Shown: positions 4,812 to 41,805 of the stretch, piece after piece
How positions within the stretch are numbered: position 1 is the first letter of the stretch
Layout of the letters: every line of letters begins with the position of its first letter
Origin: a virus
Virus genome (UHGV): UHGV-0336137
DNA length: 46,423 bases
Reading direction: 5' to 3' (one strand)
The notes under the pieces: generated by a model
The model's database searches: none
The model's input: the letters and a program-made list of their open reading frames with translations, nothing else
What the model was told of the DNA's origin: nothing
Translations under genes and position numbers: made by a program

Positions 4812-5281
4812 TGCCAACATTGCGTGAATACCAGTCGAAAAGACCAAACTGGAAACTGTATGACACCATAACCTTTTATCATTCTTCATTTGGTTATGTC
4901 CGGCTAGTTGGCAATGAGTTTTCTGATATTGTACTTGGCGGTCATACTTACCAGCCAGTGCGCATGGATGTAACCAGAAGCCAGCAATCGAACACACCGG
5001 TAATCAATGCCACGCTGAAGTTTGCGCGACTGGCTAATGACTTTAAGCAATATTTAAAGTTATGGTCAGGTTCTGGACGCATTGAGCCTATCACTGCGTT
5101 ATACCAGCGTTTTGACGAGACCGACAAAGACACACCATTAAAACCATATACGCTTTATGTGAACGATGTGACGCTTGATCAGTCTGATGTAACTGTCTCC
5201 ATCTCCATAAAAAACCCAATTAATGGCAACGTGGCAAAACTTTATGACATCACAGAATTTCCCGGACTGCGTACCGTTTGA
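4811..5281 (+). CDS. minor tail protein
   Basis: 156 aa, translationally coupled (TAATG) to the upstream gene; position. Confidence 0.5.
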
Positions 5282-5294
5282 CGATTTTGAAAGG

Positions 5295-5702
5295 ATGATG
5301 CTTGGAAAGCCATACGTCGACAGATGTTGTCACGTTGATGCAGTGGACTGCTGGGGTTTGGTGGTGCTGTTCTATCGCCTGTGCATGAATGCTAATGTCC
5401 ATCATGATGATTCATATTCAAATGGCGGCGATTTTGCCACTTGTTTCAATGGAGAAGTTTCATTCTGGAAAGACACCGATCATCCAAAAATTGGCGACGT
5501 GGTGGTTGCTTATCGCGGGAGCCATCCGGTACACGTCGCGTTGTGGTGGGGTCGTGATAAAATACTGCATGCGCGAGAGAAAACGGCAGTCAAGACAGAC
5601 CGCCTTAAAACACTCGAAAAATTATCAACAAAATTAAGGTTCCTGACTTATGCCGGTTATTCACATTCAGAAGATACCAGGAGTTCCAAAAGAGACGGGT
5701 AA
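5295..5702 (+). CDS. tail assembly protein with NlpC/P60-like (gpK-like) cysteine peptidase fold
   Basis: start moved to the ATG with RBS GAAAGGA; Cys...His arrangement (..[11 protein letters not shown].. / ..[10 protein letters not shown]..) typical of NlpC/P60 domains found in lambda K-like tail proteins. Confidence 0.5.
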
Positions 5703-8130
5703 TGTTCCTGCTGGCACTAATCTGTGGAGATGGCTGGAGAATTCCGGCCTTCCATCTGATATCAGGATTGCACTGAATGGCCGCATTTTTGGCCCTGATG
5801 ATGAATTGTCGATATCGTTAAAGCAAAACGATATTGTTAACATTTACTGTCAGCCTCGCGGCGCCATTGGCGACCTTATCAGCACGATACTAAAGCCTGT
5901 AACTAAGGTTCTTTCTTTTCTGCTTCCAAAAGCATCAACGCCATCAACCAGCACCGGCACGACTGTTGAATCACCCAATAACAGCCTGAAATCGCAAACC
6001 AATATTGCGCGAAACGGAGAGGCAAGACCTGACAACTTCGGTCAGGTAAGGGCATTTCCAGACCTGATTCAGGAATCGCTTTTTGAATACATTGACGATC
6101 TGAAGTACGTCACCGAGTTCATGAATTTTGGCCTTGGGAAATATACCATTTCATCGGTTCGCTATGCGGAAACTAACCTTGGCTCTCTGCCAGGCGCCAC
6201 TCATGTCATCTACAATCCAGGTGATGTGATTGGACAAATCATTGAGCCTTATCAGTTCGACGGGCTTGATGGTCAGGAGGTTCCAGGGCTAAACGAATCG
6301 GATACAACTCCTGTTGAGTCTGCAACAACAACATCTGTTACCAGCGGTGATTATGCTGGCGGTCAGCTGTTAATGGTCATACCAAAAAATACTGATTTTG
6401 ATTACTTTATGGGGCTATCTTTGCCACACTCAGTAACATTAACAATAAATATTACTTACAATACAACATCTGGCCCTGTAACAAAAAATATCGAACTCAG
6501 CGGCAACATCATTTCAGCTGAGGAAACTGAGACAGGCGTCATTCCTGATATTCAGTATTTTTATAATTTCACCTTCAATAACCTGACTGGCGCAAATCTT
6601 GGCAACCTGACAGGTGCAACCATCAACAACACTTATTTCCAGATTGTGGATAATGAGGCGCTTGTTGTTGGCCCATATGTTGGAGCTGTGGAATCAACAC
6701 AGGTTTGGGTTCACGTTCAATCTGAGCTTGGGCCCACCAGTGGTACGGCAGATTATCTGATCAAGGTATGGGCAGTTGATCATAATGGGGATGCCATTCC
6801 AGGAACCGAGGAGCAGCTTGCAGACAGTATTGACAATCCATTCAATCAGACAACCAAAAACTATTATCGCACGTATAAGTTAACTCCTGCTTATGGGCTG
6901 GCTAAGTATGCCATCAGCATTGAAAGGACAAACAACTCAAACTCTGGCAACCGCGTAACGTTGCAGGCGGCGCACGCTATCAACATCCGCGAGAATGTGG
7001 TTTATCCTGATGACACTCTTGTTAAAGTGACAGTGAAGGCTACGCTTCAGCCAACATCAGTTACTGAGCGCAAATATAATGCGCTGATCACCCGCTGGAC
7101 TATTGGATACAACAGAACAGCCGGGACAGTCGACTATACGTTAAGTCCATCAAGAAGTTTCGCAGATTCAGTGCTGCATAACTGGCTCATTACCGCTGGT
7201 CAGCCTGAAAGCACCATTGACGTGGGAAGGCTCTATAAAATAGCTGATGCGCTGCCTGATGAGCGCCTTGGGTATTTTGATTACACCTTTGACGATGAGG
7301 ATAAGTCCATTGGTGAGCGAATTCAGACCATCTGTGATGCAGCTCGCGTAACGGTTTTTTGGGATGATGGTGTCTTGTCTTTCTCAAGGGATGAGGAAAA
7401 ATCAACTCCTGAAACCATATTCAATACCAGAAACACAAAGGCCGATGGCTATAAAATGTCTTATGACATGACTTTGCCGGGGTCATATGATGGCGTAAGT
7501 GTTCAGTACCGCGACCCAAACACCAACAAACAGGCTTATGTTTATTATAAAGTTGGCACTTCTGGTATCGAACCGGGAGAGCCAACTAAGCCGAAAAAAT
7601 TCGACATGCTATATGTTCGAAACCTGTATCAGGCAACAGACCGGGCCATGCTTGAGTGCAACCGTCTCATGTACTCACGCCGTGGAATGGAGATAAAAGC
7701 GCTTGCTGATGGTGAGTGGGTAAACGTTGGCGATATGATTTCCGTTGTTGACATTTATGATTCTGTACAGCAAACAGGCGTTATCCGTTCAAGGTCTGGA
7801 AACGTATTTACCACCAGTGAACAGCTCACGGCGGGAGGCGGCCTGTTTGTAGTTATAACTGGCGCCAATGGAAATGTGTCAGATCGATTGGCTTGTACCG
7901 TTACTGGATTGAATACATTCGAGTGCGCATTACCATCTGACTTCGAGTTAAACATTTTTGACGGTGTTAACGTTCAGTCAGAATCAAGATATGCCATCTC
8001 AACAGAGGTTGAGCTTGACTCAACTTTATGGACAGTCAGCCAGAAAACTCCAGGTACAGATGGCACAGTGTCTCTTACAGTAACTGAGTACAATGACGCC
8101 ATGTACGCCTACACCAACCCTGTTGCATGA
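5650..8130 (+). CDS. tail tip / central tail fibre protein (J-like) with N-terminal gpI-like ubiquitin-type segment
   Basis: 826 aa; N-terminal ..[22 protein letters not shown].. resembles lambda-I-type tail assembly domain; Thr/Ser/Asn-rich repeats; position after K-like gene. Confidence 0.55.
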
Positions 8131-36828: not shown

Positions 36829-37901
36829 TGGAAAAGATTATTTTTACCAAAGACTTGGTAGCCAACTCCGCAGTAGTGGCTGACCAGTGGAAACATCTGA
36901 CCATCGACCGCAAGATGTTCTGCAATGCAGAGGCTGAGCTGGCGAAAACCTACGGTGTGAACGCCACCGCGCTGGTAACGAAAGATTACTGGCGCGACGT
37001 GGATAACGTCACCACCCGCGTTTTCCGCAACGAAGCTGGTCAGGATATGATGGCTGACCTGATGGGTATCGCGGCAAACATCAATATCGGTAAGACTGTG
37101 GCAATCAGCCGCATTGCTTCCGATGCTGGTAAGGTTGTCCGCACTCTGTCCGGTCAGGAACCGGAAGATTTGGATAAAACTCGCTACGATTACACTGGCG
37201 ATGTGATTCCAATCTTCAAAACTGGCTACAGCCGCGAATGGCGTGAACTGCTGGGTATGCAATCTGAAGGCTTCGACCCGCTGCTGGACGATCAGGCTAA
37301 CGTCACCTTCAACCTGCGTTCCGATATGGCGCAGTACCTGCTGACTGGCGACCAGACTCTGAACGTGAACGGCGTGTACACTGGTTACGGTATCACCAAC
37401 CACCCGAACACCATTCAGGTTAACCTGAGCACCGATTCCCCCGGCCTGAATATCGACCTGCAAACCGCAACGCCAGATGAAATCGTGACCTTCTTCAATC
37501 AGGTTTTCCAGGCTATTCTGGATGCGCAGAACGTATTTGAGCAGGTGACTCTGTGGGTTTCCCCGGCAGTGCGCCGCAGCTTCATGCGTCCGTATTCTGA
37601 TGCTGCTGGCTTTAAAGGTGGCACCGTTGAGCAGTACATCACTCAGTTCGGCAATGGTCGCATCGGTAAGATTGGCACCAACTTCCTGCTGACTGGCAAC
37701 CATTTCGTTGGTTACGTTCGCAACGACATGTACATCCGTCCGCGTGTTGCTCAACCTGTTTCCACCTACGCAGCAGCCCGTACCAACCCGCACGATAACT
37801 TTAACTTCCTCGTGTGGTCAGCTTTTGGCCTGCAAATCCGTAAGGATTTCAATGGTCGAAGCAAAGTTTTCAACGGCTACGGCACGCAAACCGCGCTGTA
37901 A
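36828..37901 (+). CDS. major capsid protein
   Basis: 357 aa, high-expression codon usage, position after decoration protein, followed by a strong terminator; lambda E-like size. Confidence 0.75.
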   Translation: MEKIIFTKDLVANSAVVADQWKHLTIDRKMFCNAEAELAKTYGVNATALVTKDYWRDVDNVTTRVFRNEAGQDMMADLMGIAANINIGKTVAISRIASDAGKVVRTLSGQEPEDLDKTRYDYTGDVIPIFKTGYSREWRELLGMQSEGFDPLLDDQANVTFNLRSDMAQYLLTGDQTLNVNGVYTGYGITNHPNTIQVNLSTDSPGLNIDLQTATPDEIVTFFNQVFQAILDAQNVFEQVTLWVSPAVRRSFMRPYSDAAGFKGGTVEQYITQFGNGRIGKIGTNFLLTGNHFVGYVRNDMYIRPRVAQPVSTYAAARTNPHDNFNFLVWSAFGLQIRKDFNGRSKVFNGYGTQTAL

Positions 37902-37905
37902 AAAT

Positions 37906-37927
37906 AAAGGGGCGAAAGCCCCTTTTA
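37906..37927 (+). terminator. rho-independent terminator
   Basis: AAAGGGGC-GAAA-GCCCCTTTT. Confidence 0.6.
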
Positions 37928-37943
37928 ACTATCAGAGGTTATC

Positions 37944-38138
37944 ATGGCTAAATACGAAGTTATCGCCAGCGGAATCTTTGTCAAGGATAAAGACGGTCGC
38001 CTGCGTGAGCTTGCTATTGGCGATATCATTGACGAATCAAGCCCGCACATTGAGTCAAAACTTCGCCCGGTTAGTGAGAAGATTCTGGAAGTGGCAACCC
38101 CACAAGAATCGCAGCCAAAGGCGAAGAAAACTAAATAG
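37944..38138 (+). CDS. hypothetical protein (64 aa)
   Basis: AGAGGT RBS; lies between two terminators after the capsid gene. Confidence 0.4.
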   Translation: MAKYEVIASGIFVKDKDGRLRELAIGDIIDESSPHIESKLRPVSEKILEVATPQESQPKAKKTK

Positions 38139-38168
38139 AAAAGCCCCGCGAGGGGCTTTGGTTTATTT
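38139..38168. terminator. bidirectional rho-independent terminator
   Basis: AAAAGCCCC-GCGA-GGGGCTTTGGTTTATTTT. Confidence 0.55.
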
Positions 38169-38303
38169 TAGCGTGAACCAAACCTTATCTTCTTTTTCAT
38201 GCAAGTGGTCGCGCTCTTTTGGTTCTGGAAAATCCTTTGGGTCTAACCCCATCTCGCAAGCAGTATCAAAAGAAACATCATCTTCGTCAATGCTGTCACT
38301 CAT
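38163..38303 (-). CDS. small acidic hypothetical protein (46 aa)
   Basis: MSDSIDEDDVSFDTACEMGLDPKDFPEPKE...; starts 3 nt after the clamp-like gene stop; low support. Confidence 0.2.
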   Translation of the reverse strand: MSDSIDEDDVSFDTACEMGLDPKDFPEPKERDHLHEKEDKVWFTLK

Positions 38304-38305
38304 CA

Positions 38306-38842
38306 CTAAATCCTCATTGGCATAACGATAACTTTTGCAGTCTCTCCAGTAGGCGCACTGATGTTTGCGACGGCGGCGCTGGTGTTGCCATTCAACTCAA
38401 ATAGCACCGCTTCAAATTTCGGGTTAAACAACTTCGCCAGCTTCTCAACATCGGCAAGATATTTGGCATTGAAGCCAATCTGTTCTGCTGGCGCGGCCTG
38501 CTTAGGAATGATGCGATCAATATCAGGGTAATTGCCATCAATCTCTTCGCAGATACCAGCGCCAACCATCACGCCCGCTTTATCATGATACGTTGCAATT
38601 TTCGACTTTGTATCAATGATGGCGTACTCATAACGTTTTGTTGGTGACTTGCCAATCTTGATAATCACATTTTCTGTCAGATTATTGTCATGGCTGCCAC
38701 CAATGAATGCTCGATGACCGTCAGTTGATGTAATGCGACCATCTGGCATAAAGCAGATACCGTTCAGGTAGTAACGAACATCATTGCGCGCCTGAAATAT
38801 TAACGCTGATTCAAGTAATAGTTTGCTGATTTTTAGTTTCAT
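38306..38842 (-). CDS. DnaN-like miniature sliding-clamp protein
   Basis: N-terminus MKLKISKLLLESALIF...LNGICF...TSTDGHRAF resembles the start of beta-clamp domain I; ..IDGNYPDIDRIIPK.. resembles IDGRFPDYRRVLP; ..QIGFNAKYLADV.. and C-terminal ..KVIVMPMRI match the beta-clamp C-terminus (..VVMPMRL); only 178 aa. Confidence 0.5.
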   Translation of the reverse strand: MKLKISKLLLESALIFQARNDVRYYLNGICFMPDGRITSTDGHRAFIGGSHDNNLTENVIIKIGKSPTKRYEYAIIDTKSKIATYHDKAGVMVGAGICEEIDGNYPDIDRIIPKQAAPAEQIGFNAKYLADVEKLAKLFNPKFEAVLFELNGNTSAAVANISAPTGETAKVIVMPMRI

Positions 38843-39015
38843 CACTTCACCTTAATCATGTGCTGTTTTGCAACCTTCAGGCATTCTTCAAAAATGCCAC
38901 CCTTCTTTGCGCTCTGATTGCGCTTGTAATACTGAATCGCCGCATCAACTGCCATCTGGTCAATGTCAGACAGCTTGGCGCGAAGTTGTTTTTCGATGAA
39001 TTGTTCTGGGTTCAT
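38842..39015 (-). CDS. hypothetical protein (58 aa)
   Basis: start at internal ATG with GGAG RBS; between the HNH and clamp-like genes. Confidence 0.3.
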   Translation of the reverse strand: MNPEQFIEKQLRAKLSDIDQMAVDAAIQYYKRNQSAKKGGIFEECLKVAKQHMIKVK

Positions 39016-39037: not shown

Positions 39038-39538
39038 TCACGAATTCCGCTGCGACTTGCGTAGATATTCCACTGCTTTAAAAAGCAACACTTCATCGTC
39101 CTTGATTACTCCAAGCATATGGTTGCATCCCCGACACAGTAACCCCCTGACCTTACCTGAAGCGTGACAGTGGTCAACGTGCAGTTGATGAGAATATCTT
39201 TCACCAGGTTCATCTCCGCATATGGCGCATCTGCCTCCTTGAGAATCCAGCATCTCGACATATTCTTCTTTGCTAATCCCGTACTTTCTTTTTATGTGTC
39301 TCCACCTATCTCTATCTTCATTAACGCCGTACCTCTCCTTTTCGTAATTCGGATTTTTATCTCGCCATTCCTTTGTTTTCTTCGTTCTGCACTTAGTACA
39401 TTTTGAGGTGTAACTTCCCCTGCGCTTATCAAACGTAAACTCGGAAATAGGTTTTTCTTCGGCGCACTCAGAACAAGTCTTCAATAGCCCCTCTGAAAGC
39501 GGCGATGAATTCGGCAGCGCACTGGGGTACGATTGCAT
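39038..39538 (-). CDS. endonuclease VII-family HNH endonuclease
   Basis: ..GISKEEYVEMLDSQGGRCAICGDE...LHVDHCHASGKVRGLLCRGCN.. matches the Endonuclease_7 signature; ATG with AGAGGA RBS lies 71 nt inside the Dcm 3' end, so the start is uncertain. Confidence 0.55.
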   Translation of the reverse strand: MQSYPSALPNSSPLSEGLLKTCSECAEEKPISEFTFDKRRGSYTSKCTKCRTKKTKEWRDKNPNYEKERYGVNEDRDRWRHIKRKYGISKEEYVEMLDSQGGRCAICGDEPGERYSHQLHVDHCHASGKVRGLLCRGCNHMLGVIKDDEVLLFKAVEYLRKSQRNS

Positions 39539-40490
39539 TGCCGTATCCTCTGAGGCGGGCAACGCGCGCCGGGATGTCTCTTCCAAGCGGGAATCCGATT
39601 TCTTCAAAGGCTGCTGCAACGCACGGATCGCCGCTATGTCCCATTCCGCCGGGAACCCCATCAACCATCTGCTGTGTCCAGGCCTCAACTGGCCTGAACT
39701 TTCCATCCCGGCATCCGATCCAGTCAGCATCTGACCAGAAGCCGTGATGCGGATTGGTTGCGTTATCGCTGCAAAATCCTGCAGACGCTGTTGTATCTTG
39801 CTCCCGTCCTTCCGATACATAGTTAGTGCGTTTTCTGGTGCAGCAGCCCTGTCGTTGCTGTTCGCAGTTGGGCTGGGCAATGCGGCCAGCTTCGCCTGTC
39901 CGGGTAGCTTCAGGCATATCTTTCTGTCCTTCCCGCTGTAGCAATGCGTGCTGCCAGTTGTATCGTTCACTATTGGTGTCGCCCAGTTGCATCGCGCCGA
40001 AGAAAAGTCTGTCGCGTTTGTGTGGTGCACCGACGCTGCACGCTGGCAATACTGCCGACCCGCAGGCGTAGCCTTTGTCTTCCAGGTTAAGGAATACAAA
40101 ATCGAGCCAGTGCTTTCCAATTGCTGCCGCAACCTGCTCTCCAAACAGCAATTGAGGCTTGCACTCTCTGATGAGCCTGAGAAATGCTGGGGCAAGGTGC
40201 CGCTCGTCGTCAAATCCGAGAGACTTACCGGCAACGCTAAACGGCTGGCAAGGTGGTGATCCTGTCCAGAGCTGAGTGCTTGCTGGTATTCCAGCCAACT
40301 GGAGTGCAAGGGGCCACCCTCCGATTCCGGCAAAGAAGTGACACTGTGTAAATCCTTCCAGGTCTGAAGGGGTGACTTCGGTGATTGATCGTTCATCGAC
40401 ATATCCGTAAGGAATTAGTTTATTGTTAATTAACTCTCGCAGCCACGCCGCTGCACTTGCGTCCCATTCGTTGTAGTAGCTGGCTGTCAT
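39468..40490 (-). CDS. DNA (cytosine-5)-methyltransferase
   Basis: motif I FFAGIGG, motif IV GSPPCQPFSVAGK (catalytic PCQ), motif X-like GNAIVP; ATGA-coupled to the ParB-like gene stop. Confidence 0.8.
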   Translation of the reverse strand: MTASYYNEWDASAAAWLRELINNKLIPYGYVDERSITEVTPSDLEGFTQCHFFAGIGGWPLALQLAGIPASTQLWTGSPPCQPFSVAGKSLGFDDERHLAPAFLRLIRECKPQLLFGEQVAAAIGKHWLDFVFLNLEDKGYACGSAVLPACSVGAPHKRDRLFFGAMQLGDTNSERYNWQHALLQREGQKDMPEATRTGEAGRIAQPNCEQQRQGCCTRKRTNYVSEGREQDTTASAGFCSDNATNPHHGFWSDADWIGCRDGKFRPVEAWTQQMVDGVPGGMGHSGDPCVAAAFEEIGFPLGRDIPARVARLRGYGNAIVPQCAAEFIAAFRGAIEDLF

Positions 40491-41305
40491 CACAGCTTCT
40501 CCAGAATAGCCAGAACTTCACCCAACTCAGCGGAAGGAAGGCGCAAAAATTCTTCTGTCTCCTGTGCCACATGACCCTCAGCGACAACCATATGGTCTGC
40601 TTCTTTCAGCAACTGAATCAGGCGGTCAATCGGCTTAACTTTTTTGGCCTTGAGCGTTTTAGCCGTCACCTTATCTTTGCCCTGCGCTTTCGCTTCCTCA
40701 ACGGCGGCATCAATAACGTTAACGGCATCATCGCCATGCTCACGTGCGACCGCAACGGCGTTGGCATAGCTGATTTGGCCTGCATTGATACGCTGCTTGA
40801 TGGCATCAGGTACATCACCAAGTGACAGGTGCATTTGCACATCAGACACAGAGCGCCCGACCTTCTTGGCGATTTCTTCATTCGTCCACCCGAACCCTTT
40901 GAGGCGCACATAAGCCTTTGCACGCTCAAGCGGGTCGAGTTGCTTGCCCTGACTTGAAGACACCATGAAGGCGATTTTATCCGCCTCATCGCCGGTGAAG
41001 TCTTTGCACTCAATTCGCGCAATTGGCACGCCGCGCTCAATGGCACGCAGTGCTCCAAGGTAACGATGCTGGCCGTCAAGAATCTTGATGCGCTTTCCGT
41101 CGGCATCAGGAATAACAGTTAACGCCGGGATTGGCTGTCCTGATTCCCAACACTGCGCGAAGTATTCAACGTGCTGCTCATCGGCTTCGCGGATGTTGTA
41201 CCCCGGCTCAAGGTAAAGCTGGTCGACAGGGACCTGATAACCTTTGTTGACCACGATTCCGCCGCGAGTTTCTTTGTCTGAGTAAATTTTTCCGAGAGAT
41301 GTCAT
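40490..41305 (-). CDS. ParB/Sulfiredoxin-domain protein (ParB-like nuclease domain)
   Basis: ..KRIKILDGQHRYLGALRA.. ParB N-terminal box; start moved to ATG (MTSLGK) with GAGGGA RBS. Confidence 0.6.
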   Translation of the reverse strand: MTSLGKIYSDKETRGGIVVNKGYQVPVDQLYLEPGYNIREADEQHVEYFAQCWESGQPIPALTVIPDADGKRIKILDGQHRYLGALRAIERGVPIARIECKDFTGDEADKIAFMVSSSQGKQLDPLERAKAYVRLKGFGWTNEEIAKKVGRSVSDVQMHLSLGDVPDAIKQRINAGQISYANAVAVAREHGDDAVNVIDAAVEEAKAQGKDKVTAKTLKAKKVKPIDRLIQLLKEADHMVVAEGHVAQETEEFLRLPSAELGEVLAILEKL

Positions 41306-41313
41306 CTTTCCCT

Positions 41314-41429
41314 CACTTTGATAAACAGATTGCACTGGCAATGGCGAATCCGATAACGATTAACGCCAGCTTGATTTTGAACTTATCCCACGCCTTCAGG
41401 TCTTCTTTTCGTATTTCGTGGCGGATCAT
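41314..41429 (-). CDS. 38-aa membrane peptide
   Basis: ATGA-coupled to the upstream gene; single TM LALIVIGFAIASAICL. Confidence 0.25.
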
Positions 41430-41719
41430 TGGGGTTCTCCGAGTGCTTTTGCGATTGCGGCATAGGCCTTGCTCAAGGCAGTGGCATTCCTTTTTGTTGG
41501 CGTAGTGAAGACTACAAGCATCTCCAGAGCCTCCAGCAATTCCGGCGCAGCGGCCATCATTCGTTGGTTGGCAATTTGAACCTCAACCTCAGGGTCAAAC
41601 TCAACCCAGCCGACAGGAATAATCACTCCATAAGACTGGTCGTCATCTGTTGATTTTGGCCCTATTGCCCTGCTGTTATCTCCAAACCACGGCCCCGGCG
41701 TACCTTTGAATTCATTCAT
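41426..41719 (-). CDS. hypothetical protein
   Basis: first gene of the ParB/Dcm operon; start placed at the third in-frame Met (GAGGTGA RBS). Confidence 0.4.
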   Translation of the reverse strand: MNEFKGTPGPWFGDNSRAIGPKSTDDDQSYGVIIPVGWVEFDPEVEVQIANQRMMAAAPELLEALEMLVVFTTPTKRNATALSKAYAAIAKALGEPQ

Positions 41720-41744
41720 CCTCATCACCTCTAACATTTATTGT

Positions 41745-41805
41745 TGTTTCTACGTCATCACTATAGCGACACCCTCAATCTGCGTCAACACTTTATGATA
41801 AAATT
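41745..41805. promoter_or_regulatory. divergent promoter region: element variants TTTCTACGTCA (about 41747) and AATCTGCGTCA (about 41777) leftward; extended -10 TGATAAAAT (41796-41804) rightward
   Basis: between the ParB operon (-) and the head-tail joining operon (+); TGATAAAAT is identical to the lysis-operon promoter box. Confidence 0.45.

Follow-up and report, generated by a model that had tools for sequence, protein, structure and literature searches.

The UHGV virus genome UHGV-0336137, analyzed here over its whole length of 46,423 nucleotides (nt; 'the window'), raises the question of what a protein resembling the bacterial sliding clamp DnaN, at about half the normal length, does in a phage that has no DNA polymerase gene. 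The window is an essentially complete genome (~46.4 kb) that shares 96–98% identity with Klebsiella phage vB_KpnS_ZX4 (hereafter ZX4) across most of its length and belongs to the Skatevirus/Roufvirus cluster of small siphoviruses. An earlier sequence-only reading of the locus had called the product, 178 amino acids (aa) long, a DnaN-like mini sliding clamp and had stressed the missing polymerase. Two parts of that description are confirmed: phmmer, hhalign and AlphaFold2 agree on a DnaN-derived protein of about half the normal length, and searches of all sizeable open reading frames (ORFs) against Pfam and PHROGs revealed no DNA polymerase in the window. What the protein retains, as detailed below, is the docking pocket for clamp-binding motifs (CBMs), and what it has lost are the parts that close the clamp ring. 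We therefore refer to it as the half-clamp, and we judge it slightly better than evenly probable that it is a β-clamp-derived 'pocket module' acting off the ring as a receptor for host CBM peptides.

Homology and fold of the half-clamp

Among proteins of solved structure, phmmer matches the half-clamp to the β clamps of Enterobacter cloacae (E 7e-11) and Escherichia coli (E 6e-10), and hhalign, run with an 87-sequence family alignment against E. coli β, returns a probability of 99.45% (E 4.4e-22). The E. coli β sequence used here and in the pocket, charge and helix comparisons agrees with residues 136–295 and 313–366 as printed by HMMER. With the same diverse 87-sequence alignment, AlphaFold2 produced a monomer model with a mean predicted local distance difference test (pLDDT) score of 96.1 and a predicted TM-score (pTM) of 0.90; residues 118–178 score 92–97. 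The diverse alignment was needed, as only 29 close homologs yielded pLDDT 41. The model displays the clamp fold, with its repeated β-α-β-β-β motifs. Thus, the profile and structure checks that the sequence-only reading had proposed gave both a clamp match and a clamp fold, and neither of the outcomes that it had named as refuting was seen.

The half-clamp scores 36.9 bits with TIGR00663 (cut-off 137.65), the match being confined to model positions 139–252, and 15.7 bits with each of Pfam PF02767 (DNA_pol3_beta_2) and PF02768 (DNA_pol3_beta_3), for which the cut-off is 27. Since these scores lie under the curated cut-offs, the half-clamp is a homolog of DnaN rather than an ortholog. Moreover, DnaN is defined by three homologous domains (PF00712, PF02767 and PF02768) in about 366 aa, which a protein of 178 aa does not contain.

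Retained and deleted parts of the clamp

In the hhalign alignment, with which the stretches aligned by phmmer agree, residues 1–117 correspond to β 126–254, that is, domain II and the interdomain connector, and residues 118–178 to β 313–366, the last β-α-β-β-β motif of domain III. A single clean deletion of 58 residues (β 255–312) separates the two parts, and domain I is absent. The N-terminus had been taken for the beginning of domain I; this assignment is wrong, although the sequence strings quoted for the comparison are all present in the 178-aa minus-strand product. Within domain II, the second inner helix (β ~197–208) is replaced in the model by a short loop, GKSPTKRYE, and the DSSP string contains no helix between the strands at 59–63 and 73–77.

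The deleted regions are those that make β a ring. In E. coli β, I78 and F106 pack on I272 and L273, and K74, R96, R103 and R105 pair with E298–E304 (PMC11139829). All of these published ring-closing residues fall in β 1–125 or 255–312 and have no counterpart in the half-clamp, so that the head-to-tail dimer interface characteristic of DnaN is missing. Furthermore, the loaded clamp contacts DNA through Q15, G23, R24, R73, R80 and Q149 (PMC11139829), and five of these six residues belong to domain I and hence lie outside the half-clamp. The sequence evidence thus argues against a canonical ring, and the name 'sliding clamp' is not supported. Compared with bacterial DnaN (E. coli β, 366 aa, PDB 1MMI/2POL), the half-clamp shares sequence, fold, the CBM pocket and the C-terminal VMPMR[LI] tail, but is without domain I, the first half of domain III, the head-to-tail interface and most DNA-contact residues, has lost one inner helix of domain II and is basic rather than acidic. 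T4 gp45 and PCNA, which form trimeric rings and use another partner-binding site, have two full domains per protomer, whereas the half-clamp does not have two complete clamp domains and is clearly closer to bacterial β.

The deletion has a correlate in the remaining part of domain III. On the helix formed by residues 126–139, the equivalents of E. coli V321, L325, L328 and L331 (positions 126, 130, 133 and 136) are small or polar throughout the family. We take this to be the face that in β packs on the motif now deleted. The replacement of its large residues indicates that the core was probably remodeled after the deletion.

We also considered whether the missing half is encoded elsewhere. A family hidden Markov model compared with all six-frame ORFs of at least 40 aa in the window matched the half-clamp gene alone, revealing no second clamp-like ORF. 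The 57-aa ORF directly upstream was rejected as the missing half: its size fits the deleted 58-residue motif, yet it has no similarity to it. Its sequence looks helical, judged by eye only.

Docking pocket and surface charge

In E. coli β, subsite I of the CBM pocket comprises R152, L155, T172, G174, H175, R176, L177, P242, R246, V247, V360 and M362, and subsite II comprises H175, N320, Y323, V344, M362, P363, M364 and R365 (PMC11139829). The pocket is assembled wholly from segments that the half-clamp retains. Fourteen of its 18 residues are identical in the half-clamp, including R152, L155, T172, G174, H175, P242, N320, Y323 and M362–R365, and the other four carry conservative substitutions (L177A, V247I, V360I and V344T), one of them at a position, V344, that is not conserved among β clamps either (PMC11139829).

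The pocket is also where the family is most conserved. Conservation was computed on 83 representatives that are 28–49% identical to the half-clamp, and 10 of the 12 most conserved columns (G42, P175, P106, R23, M174, Y25, H43, Y128, D21, R177, L26 and T40) are published pocket positions (hypergeometric P=3.9e-10). The C-terminal [IV]MPxR[LIV] tail is near-universal.

Outside the pocket, the family has shifted in charge. The median isoelectric point (pI) of its members is 8.25, with 65% of them above 7.5, compared with 5.25 for E. coli β and 5.81 for the β segments equivalent to the half-clamp. Lysine or arginine is conserved at the non-pocket positions 19, 70, 134, 137 and 142, of which position 19 corresponds to β H148, the neighbor of the DNA-contact residue Q149. 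Judging from the alignment, these basic residues would sit on the loop and helix that formerly faced the channel.

Distribution and annotation of the phage family

The half-clamp belongs to a large and old phage family. A search of 1.84 billion representatives clustered at 50% identity gave 1877 matches at E≤1e-3, 191 of them at E≤1e-10. Among the best 150 cluster representatives, 131 are 165–215 aa long and the shorter ones are fragments. Because these best 150 score at least 60 bits against the half-clamp, whereas E. coli β scores ~42–45, the half-size proteins form a coherent family apart from full-length DnaN. Consistent with this, the half-clamp matches PHROG 3007 over its full length (E 3.9e-62; residues 1–178 against profile positions 1–186 of 190), and the conserved motifs DVRYYLNG, T-x-G-H, DG-x-FPD and C-terminal MP-x-R are present. 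Independent models of half-size homologs in BFVD (Pantoea LIET2, Serratia Rovert and others) superpose on it over the full length, with query and target TM-scores (TMq and TMt) of 0.82–0.89 and 0.79–0.82, respectively. By tblastn, the gene is found in 301 annotated phage records, the hosts being Salmonella, Escherichia, Vibrio, Klebsiella, Acinetobacter, Proteus, Pseudomonas, Burkholderia, Pantoea and others.

This distribution bears on the missing polymerase. Family-A polymerases, confirmed with Pfam, are encoded by the half-clamp carriers Dhillonvirus EP23, Kagunavirus phage 26 and Burkholderia phage SBP9, and a homolog is also present in an Autographiviridae phage. Shewanella phage 1/41, another carrier, has no annotated polymerase, and the same holds for ZX4 by annotation. 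The idea that the absence of a polymerase explains the gene was therefore rejected, and the emphasis placed on it by the sequence-only reading is misleading.

In GenBank and RefSeq, members of the family are labeled 'DNA polymerase III beta subunit', 'DNA polymerase III' or 'RusA-like Holliday junction resolvase'. The last name is given to this clamp-fold protein by PHROG 3007 and by many RefSeq records (NC_054654 and others), which amounts to a systematic annotation error across the records of the family. Papers on related phages repeat the labels and take the gene for a sliding clamp or even for the phage DNA polymerase; in at least one case it served as a 'DNA polymerase' marker for phylogeny (PMC9901506). 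The literature searched, whose coverage was incomplete so that prior work is possible, contained no account of the truncation, the loss of the ring interface or the conservation of the pocket only, and no experiment on the protein.

Proposed function

We propose that domain II, the interdomain connector and the last motif of domain III jointly form a hydrophobic cleft that would accept CBMs of the Q-φ-x-L-F type, such as those of the α, ε and δ subunits of Pol III, Hda, Pol II, Pol IV, Pol V, MutS, MutL and others. As a soluble protein, the half-clamp would compete with the host clamp for these peptides. The outcome could be that of an adaptor, most useful in a polymerase-less phage, with host replisome or repair factors held on phage DNA or on phage complexes; alternatively, it could be that of a decoy, with host factors withheld from the host clamp. 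Decoy and adaptor were both among the roles imagined by the sequence-only reading, and they now constitute the favored class of mechanism, as the retained and most conserved residues are those that form the CBM pocket; its third idea, an oligomerizing reduced-domain clamp, fares less well (see below).

That CBM-type peptides are bound off the ring is inferred. The ligands of the pocket are most likely host clamp-binding proteins, because the pocket is near-identical to that of the host and no phage CBM was found. Indeed, canonical CBM patterns are not enriched in the phage proteome (2 found against ~4 expected, none of them terminal), and the family-A polymerases of EP23, phage 26 and SBP9 contain no canonical CBM; a phage-encoded ligand of the pocket was rejected on these grounds. 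The chances appear about even that the half-clamp is a free-standing natural copy of the docking pocket with which many phages redirect host clamp-binding proteins, a strategy without known precedent.

The best functional analog is an engineered monomeric β (I272A/L273A), a non-ring clamp with an intact pocket. This mutant is reported to bind δ ~50-fold more tightly than the ring does and still to bind DNA, but to confer no processivity (PMC11139829). It keeps all three domains, whereas the half-clamp is a natural, conserved version with 1.5 domains. By analogy, the δ subunit of the clamp loader is suggested as a high-affinity candidate partner, and because monomeric β binds δ so tightly, a pocket-only protein could be a potent competitor. 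Non-ring processivity factors are also known from herpesviruses, namely, UL42 of herpes simplex virus (HSV), UL44 of human cytomegalovirus (HCMV), BMRF1 of Epstein–Barr virus (EBV) and PF-8 of Kaposi's sarcoma-associated herpesvirus (KSHV). Each of these has two complete domains and binds the polymerase of its own virus, whereas the half-clamp has 1.5 domains, a host-type pocket and, in the window, a genome without a polymerase. Factors of the UL42 type bind DNA with a basic face, of which the half-clamp may or may not have a counterpart. Twort Gp168 and MuC of phage Mu bind the host clamp, in its channel or via a CBM; copying the docking pocket is the inverse strategy.

Between the two outcomes, an adaptor or tether is slightly favored over a pure decoy because of the basic surface and because this phage depends on Pol III of its host. 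A phage that relies on this polymerase would harm itself by making a strong decoy, which counts against part of our proposal. Several other observations weigh against it. The pocket varies within the family, the equivalent of R176 being arginine in only 24% of members, that of M364 being conserved in 47% and that of V344 in 2%, so that specificity may differ from that of host β. The small-residue face of helix 126–139 could represent tight packing or an oligomer interface rather than a solvent-exposed surface. Finally, the genomic context of the half-clamp is heterogeneous and no obligate partner emerged from it, while the methyltransferase, Nmad5 and nuclease genes among its neighbors could mean that what the pocket really binds is a phage enzyme, through a non-canonical motif.

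Gene neighborhoods and alternative explanations

In Skatevirus/Roufvirus relatives, Dhillonvirus, Kagunavirus and Shewanella 1/41, the half-clamp gene is a reverse-oriented insert in the structural module, and in Nafs113, SBP9 and PVP-XSN it is found in replication/recombination modules. Genes for a C-5 cytosine DNA methyltransferase (Dcm) and a ParB-like protein share its operon in the window and in Bas78. In the Dhillonvirus EP23, a Shigella phage, a gene for Nmad5 (5080–5844, minus strand; PF18757, E 2e-58) lies immediately downstream of it, as does a Dam methyltransferase gene in Vibrio PVP-XSN; nucleases adjoin it in Pantoea Nafs113, with Dam nearby, and Dcm is four genes away in Burkholderia SBP9. 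The Dhillonvirus nmad5 gene is toxic when cloned, dispensable and the locus of mutations that escape the Tmn defense system (PMC11846954, 2025), and the adjacent clamp-like gene goes unmentioned in that study (PMC11846954).

These neighborhoods suggest that the half-clamp might serve phage enzymes of DNA modification or processing (a methyltransferase, an Nmad5-type or ParB-like protein or a nuclease) as an accessory subunit, bound through a non-canonical motif, and that it would provide DNA tethering or access to the fork, allowing modification of newly made phage DNA to precede host restriction. The basic charge of the family would suit such tethering. Nevertheless, we consider this explanation unlikely. 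The association was noted at some ten loci with no statistical control, and since methyltransferases are common in the early regions of phages, it may be background. Moreover, no modification gene is found near the half-clamp in Kagunavirus phage 26, Shewanella 1/41 or Vibrio 1.046.O. Among 23 neighbor proteins from 8 loci, a canonical CBM was found only in the ParB-like protein, as QMHLSL; this match to the hexameric consensus is conserved in Bas78 and is probably coincidental, because it lies inside the folded helix-turn-helix (HTH) region. The near-identity of the pocket to that of the host likewise argues for host-type ligands.

A second alternative, which we regard as distinctly unlikely, is a purely dominant-negative host shut-off factor that would sequester clamp-loader δ, Pol III or both and have no constructive role for the phage. 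The conserved pocket and the ~50-fold tighter binding of δ by monomeric β are as expected of such a factor, and carriers with their own polymerases could afford to disable Pol III. However, the window, ZX4 and Shewanella 1/41 are polymerase-less (the latter two by annotation) and presumably need Pol III, and a decoy has no need of a conserved basic surface. In addition, a second δ-contact loop, probably near β 274–278, would fall within the deleted segment. The review PMC11139829 gives no numbering for this loop.

It is still less probable, and indeed improbable, that the half-clamp is a true sliding clamp of new stoichiometry. Four protomers of three motifs each would form a 12-motif tetrameric ring of D2 symmetry by like-with-like pairing, in which two domain-III half-domains complete one domain and two domain-II edges pair; loaded by the host clamp loader through the pocket, it would make Pol III processive on phage DNA independently of host DnaN. 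The motif arithmetic (3 x 4 = 12) fits, the pocket for contacts with loader and polymerase is intact, the small-residue face of helix 126–139 could be an interface, basic residues are conserved on the equivalent of a channel-lining helix, and the window has neither a polymerase nor another clamp of its own. However, every known interface residue is deleted, one of the three expected inner helices has become a loop, and a D2 ring would carry pockets on its two faces, which no known substrate of a clamp loader does. Furthermore, some phages that carry the family encode family-A polymerases of their own in which CBMs are absent. Lastly, a RusA-like Holliday junction resolvase, for which only the database label speaks, can be dismissed, as sequence, profile and structure comparisons all identify the β-clamp fold and the RusA Pfam profile does not match the half-clamp even at E≤10.

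Organization of the half-clamp operon

The half-clamp ORF runs from an ATG on the minus strand, with an in-frame GTG at 38845; on the plus strand, translation of these positions meets many stops. The gene closes a minus-strand cluster (Table 1) that is placed antisense, with the major capsid gene on one side and the head-tail genes on the other, and a hairpin separates the convergent capsid-side genes from it. The start codon overlaps the stop of the 57-aa ORF (TGATG) and is preceded by a Shine-Dalgarno sequence, AAGGTG.

Table 1. Coordinates of the half-clamp, its segments, its operon and other features of the window
Feature	Coordinates	Strand	Remarks
Half-clamp coding sequence	38306..38842	-	178 aa + stop; 19.5 kDa; pI 8.45
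Residues 1-101, domain II equivalent (β ~126-237)	38540..38842	-	Pocket R23, L26, T40, G42, H43, R44, A45
Residues 102-117, interdomain connector IDGNYPDIDRIIPKQAA (β 238-254)	38492..38539	-	Pocket P106, R110, I111
Residues 118-178, last motif of domain III, joined directly to connector	38309..38491	-	hhalign, phmmer; pocket N125, Y128, T154, I172, M174, P175, M176, R177
57-aa ORF, phrog_4439, function unknown	38842..39015	-	Translationally coupled directly upstream of half-clamp
Endonuclease VII-family gene, half-clamp operon	39038..39487	-	Pfam PF02945 E 6.5e-25
C-5 cytosine DNA methyltransferase (Dcm-type), half-clamp operon	39468..40493	-	Pfam PF00145 E 6.4e-22
ParB-like / KorB-like HTH protein, half-clamp operon	40490..41341	-	Pfam PF17762 E 4.6e-11; PF08535
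103-aa ORF, first of operon, phrog_1273, function unknown	41426..41737	-	
Candidate sigma70-like promoter upstream of operon	41760..41788	-	TTGACG, 17 nt spacer, TATAGT; 10/12 consensus matches only
Bidirectional intrinsic-terminator-like hairpin	38140..38159		8 bp stem, 5 G-C pairs
46-aa ORF, very acidic	38163..38306	-	Begins at half-clamp stop codon (TAGTG overlap)
Tail fibre/tailspike, 820 aa	8160..10622	+	C-terminal GDSL/SGNH esterase domain (PF13472, E 3e-14)
AAA_24/Sak4-like protein, 346 aa	11164..12204	-	phrog_1366, phrog_124
T5orf172/MUG113 ORF, 342 aa	26955..27983	+	GIY-YIG-like domain; treble-clef zinc finger

The 57-aa ORF is a conserved neighbor of the half-clamp in ZX4 and Bas78 (~90% identical to the Bas78 copy), and in Skatevirus/Roufvirus relatives it is always coupled just upstream. 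It carries QLRAKL/QLRTKL, which is like a hexameric clamp-binding motif but is without L or M at position 4. It is a possible partner of the half-clamp. In Bas78, the operon consists of the ParB, methyltransferase, 57-aa and half-clamp genes; since the endonuclease VII gene is missing from this otherwise collinear operon, it is probably a mobile nuclease insertion. In the window, this gene and the 3' end of the Dcm gene share 20 nt, and the ORF that is mechanically the longest here (39038–40402, 454 aa) is an artifact crossing the Dcm gene in another frame. The 46-aa ORF that follows the half-clamp is not conserved in ZX4 or Bas78, and megablast aligns nothing in ZX4 to window positions 37900–38315; this ORF may be a small gene particular to the strain, or it may not be a gene. 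PADLOC, run on the half-clamp, the ParB-like protein and the 103-, 57- and 46-aa ORFs, gave no match for any of these five, and the idea of a defense or anti-defense component was rejected.

Other features of the genome

Products that Pfam and PHROGs identify in the window are a single-stranded DNA-binding protein (SSB), an AAA_24/Sak4-like protein, a PDDEXK exonuclease, an SF2 helicase, a Zn-ribbon primase and a DUF3987 helicase. The same searches find terminase, portal, a Mu-F-like protein, capsid and tail proteins, and a T5orf172 homing-endonuclease-like insertion. The ZX4 annotation has an Erf-like annealase and a small ORF in place of the AAA_24/Sak4-like protein, pointing to an exchange of the recombinase module between two phages whose sequences are 96–98% identical elsewhere. 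The 342-aa T5orf172 ORF stands between the portal and Mu-F-like head-morphogenesis genes and is probably a homing-endonuclease insertion, because ZX4 has no gene at the same position; it accounts for most of the ~1 kb size difference between the window and ZX4. The esterase domain of the tailspike suggests a putative deacetylase acting on capsule or O-antigen, rather than a glycosidase-type depolymerase.

Biological implications

The labels 'RusA-like resolvase' and 'DNA polymerase III' leave hundreds of phage genomes with a wrong or misleading annotation of this gene. A tetrameric 12-motif ring, if that explanation were true, would be a sliding-clamp stoichiometry not seen before. If the pocket module is real, the half-clamp (19.5 kDa and possibly monomeric) would be a minimal natural pocket scaffold for inhibitor screening and for probing CBM hierarchies. 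Bacterial replication and repair both center on the β clamp, which is also an antibiotic target, and every known partner docks in one pocket. Phages are known to attack it from outside, by means of peptides that bind the clamp and blockers of its channel. A pocket-only family would instead offer them a portable docking site that could reroute or titrate Pol III, the clamp loader, Hda, translesion polymerases or mismatch-repair proteins. Such a family also has a bearing on the way in which lytic siphophages without a polymerase make use of the host replisome.

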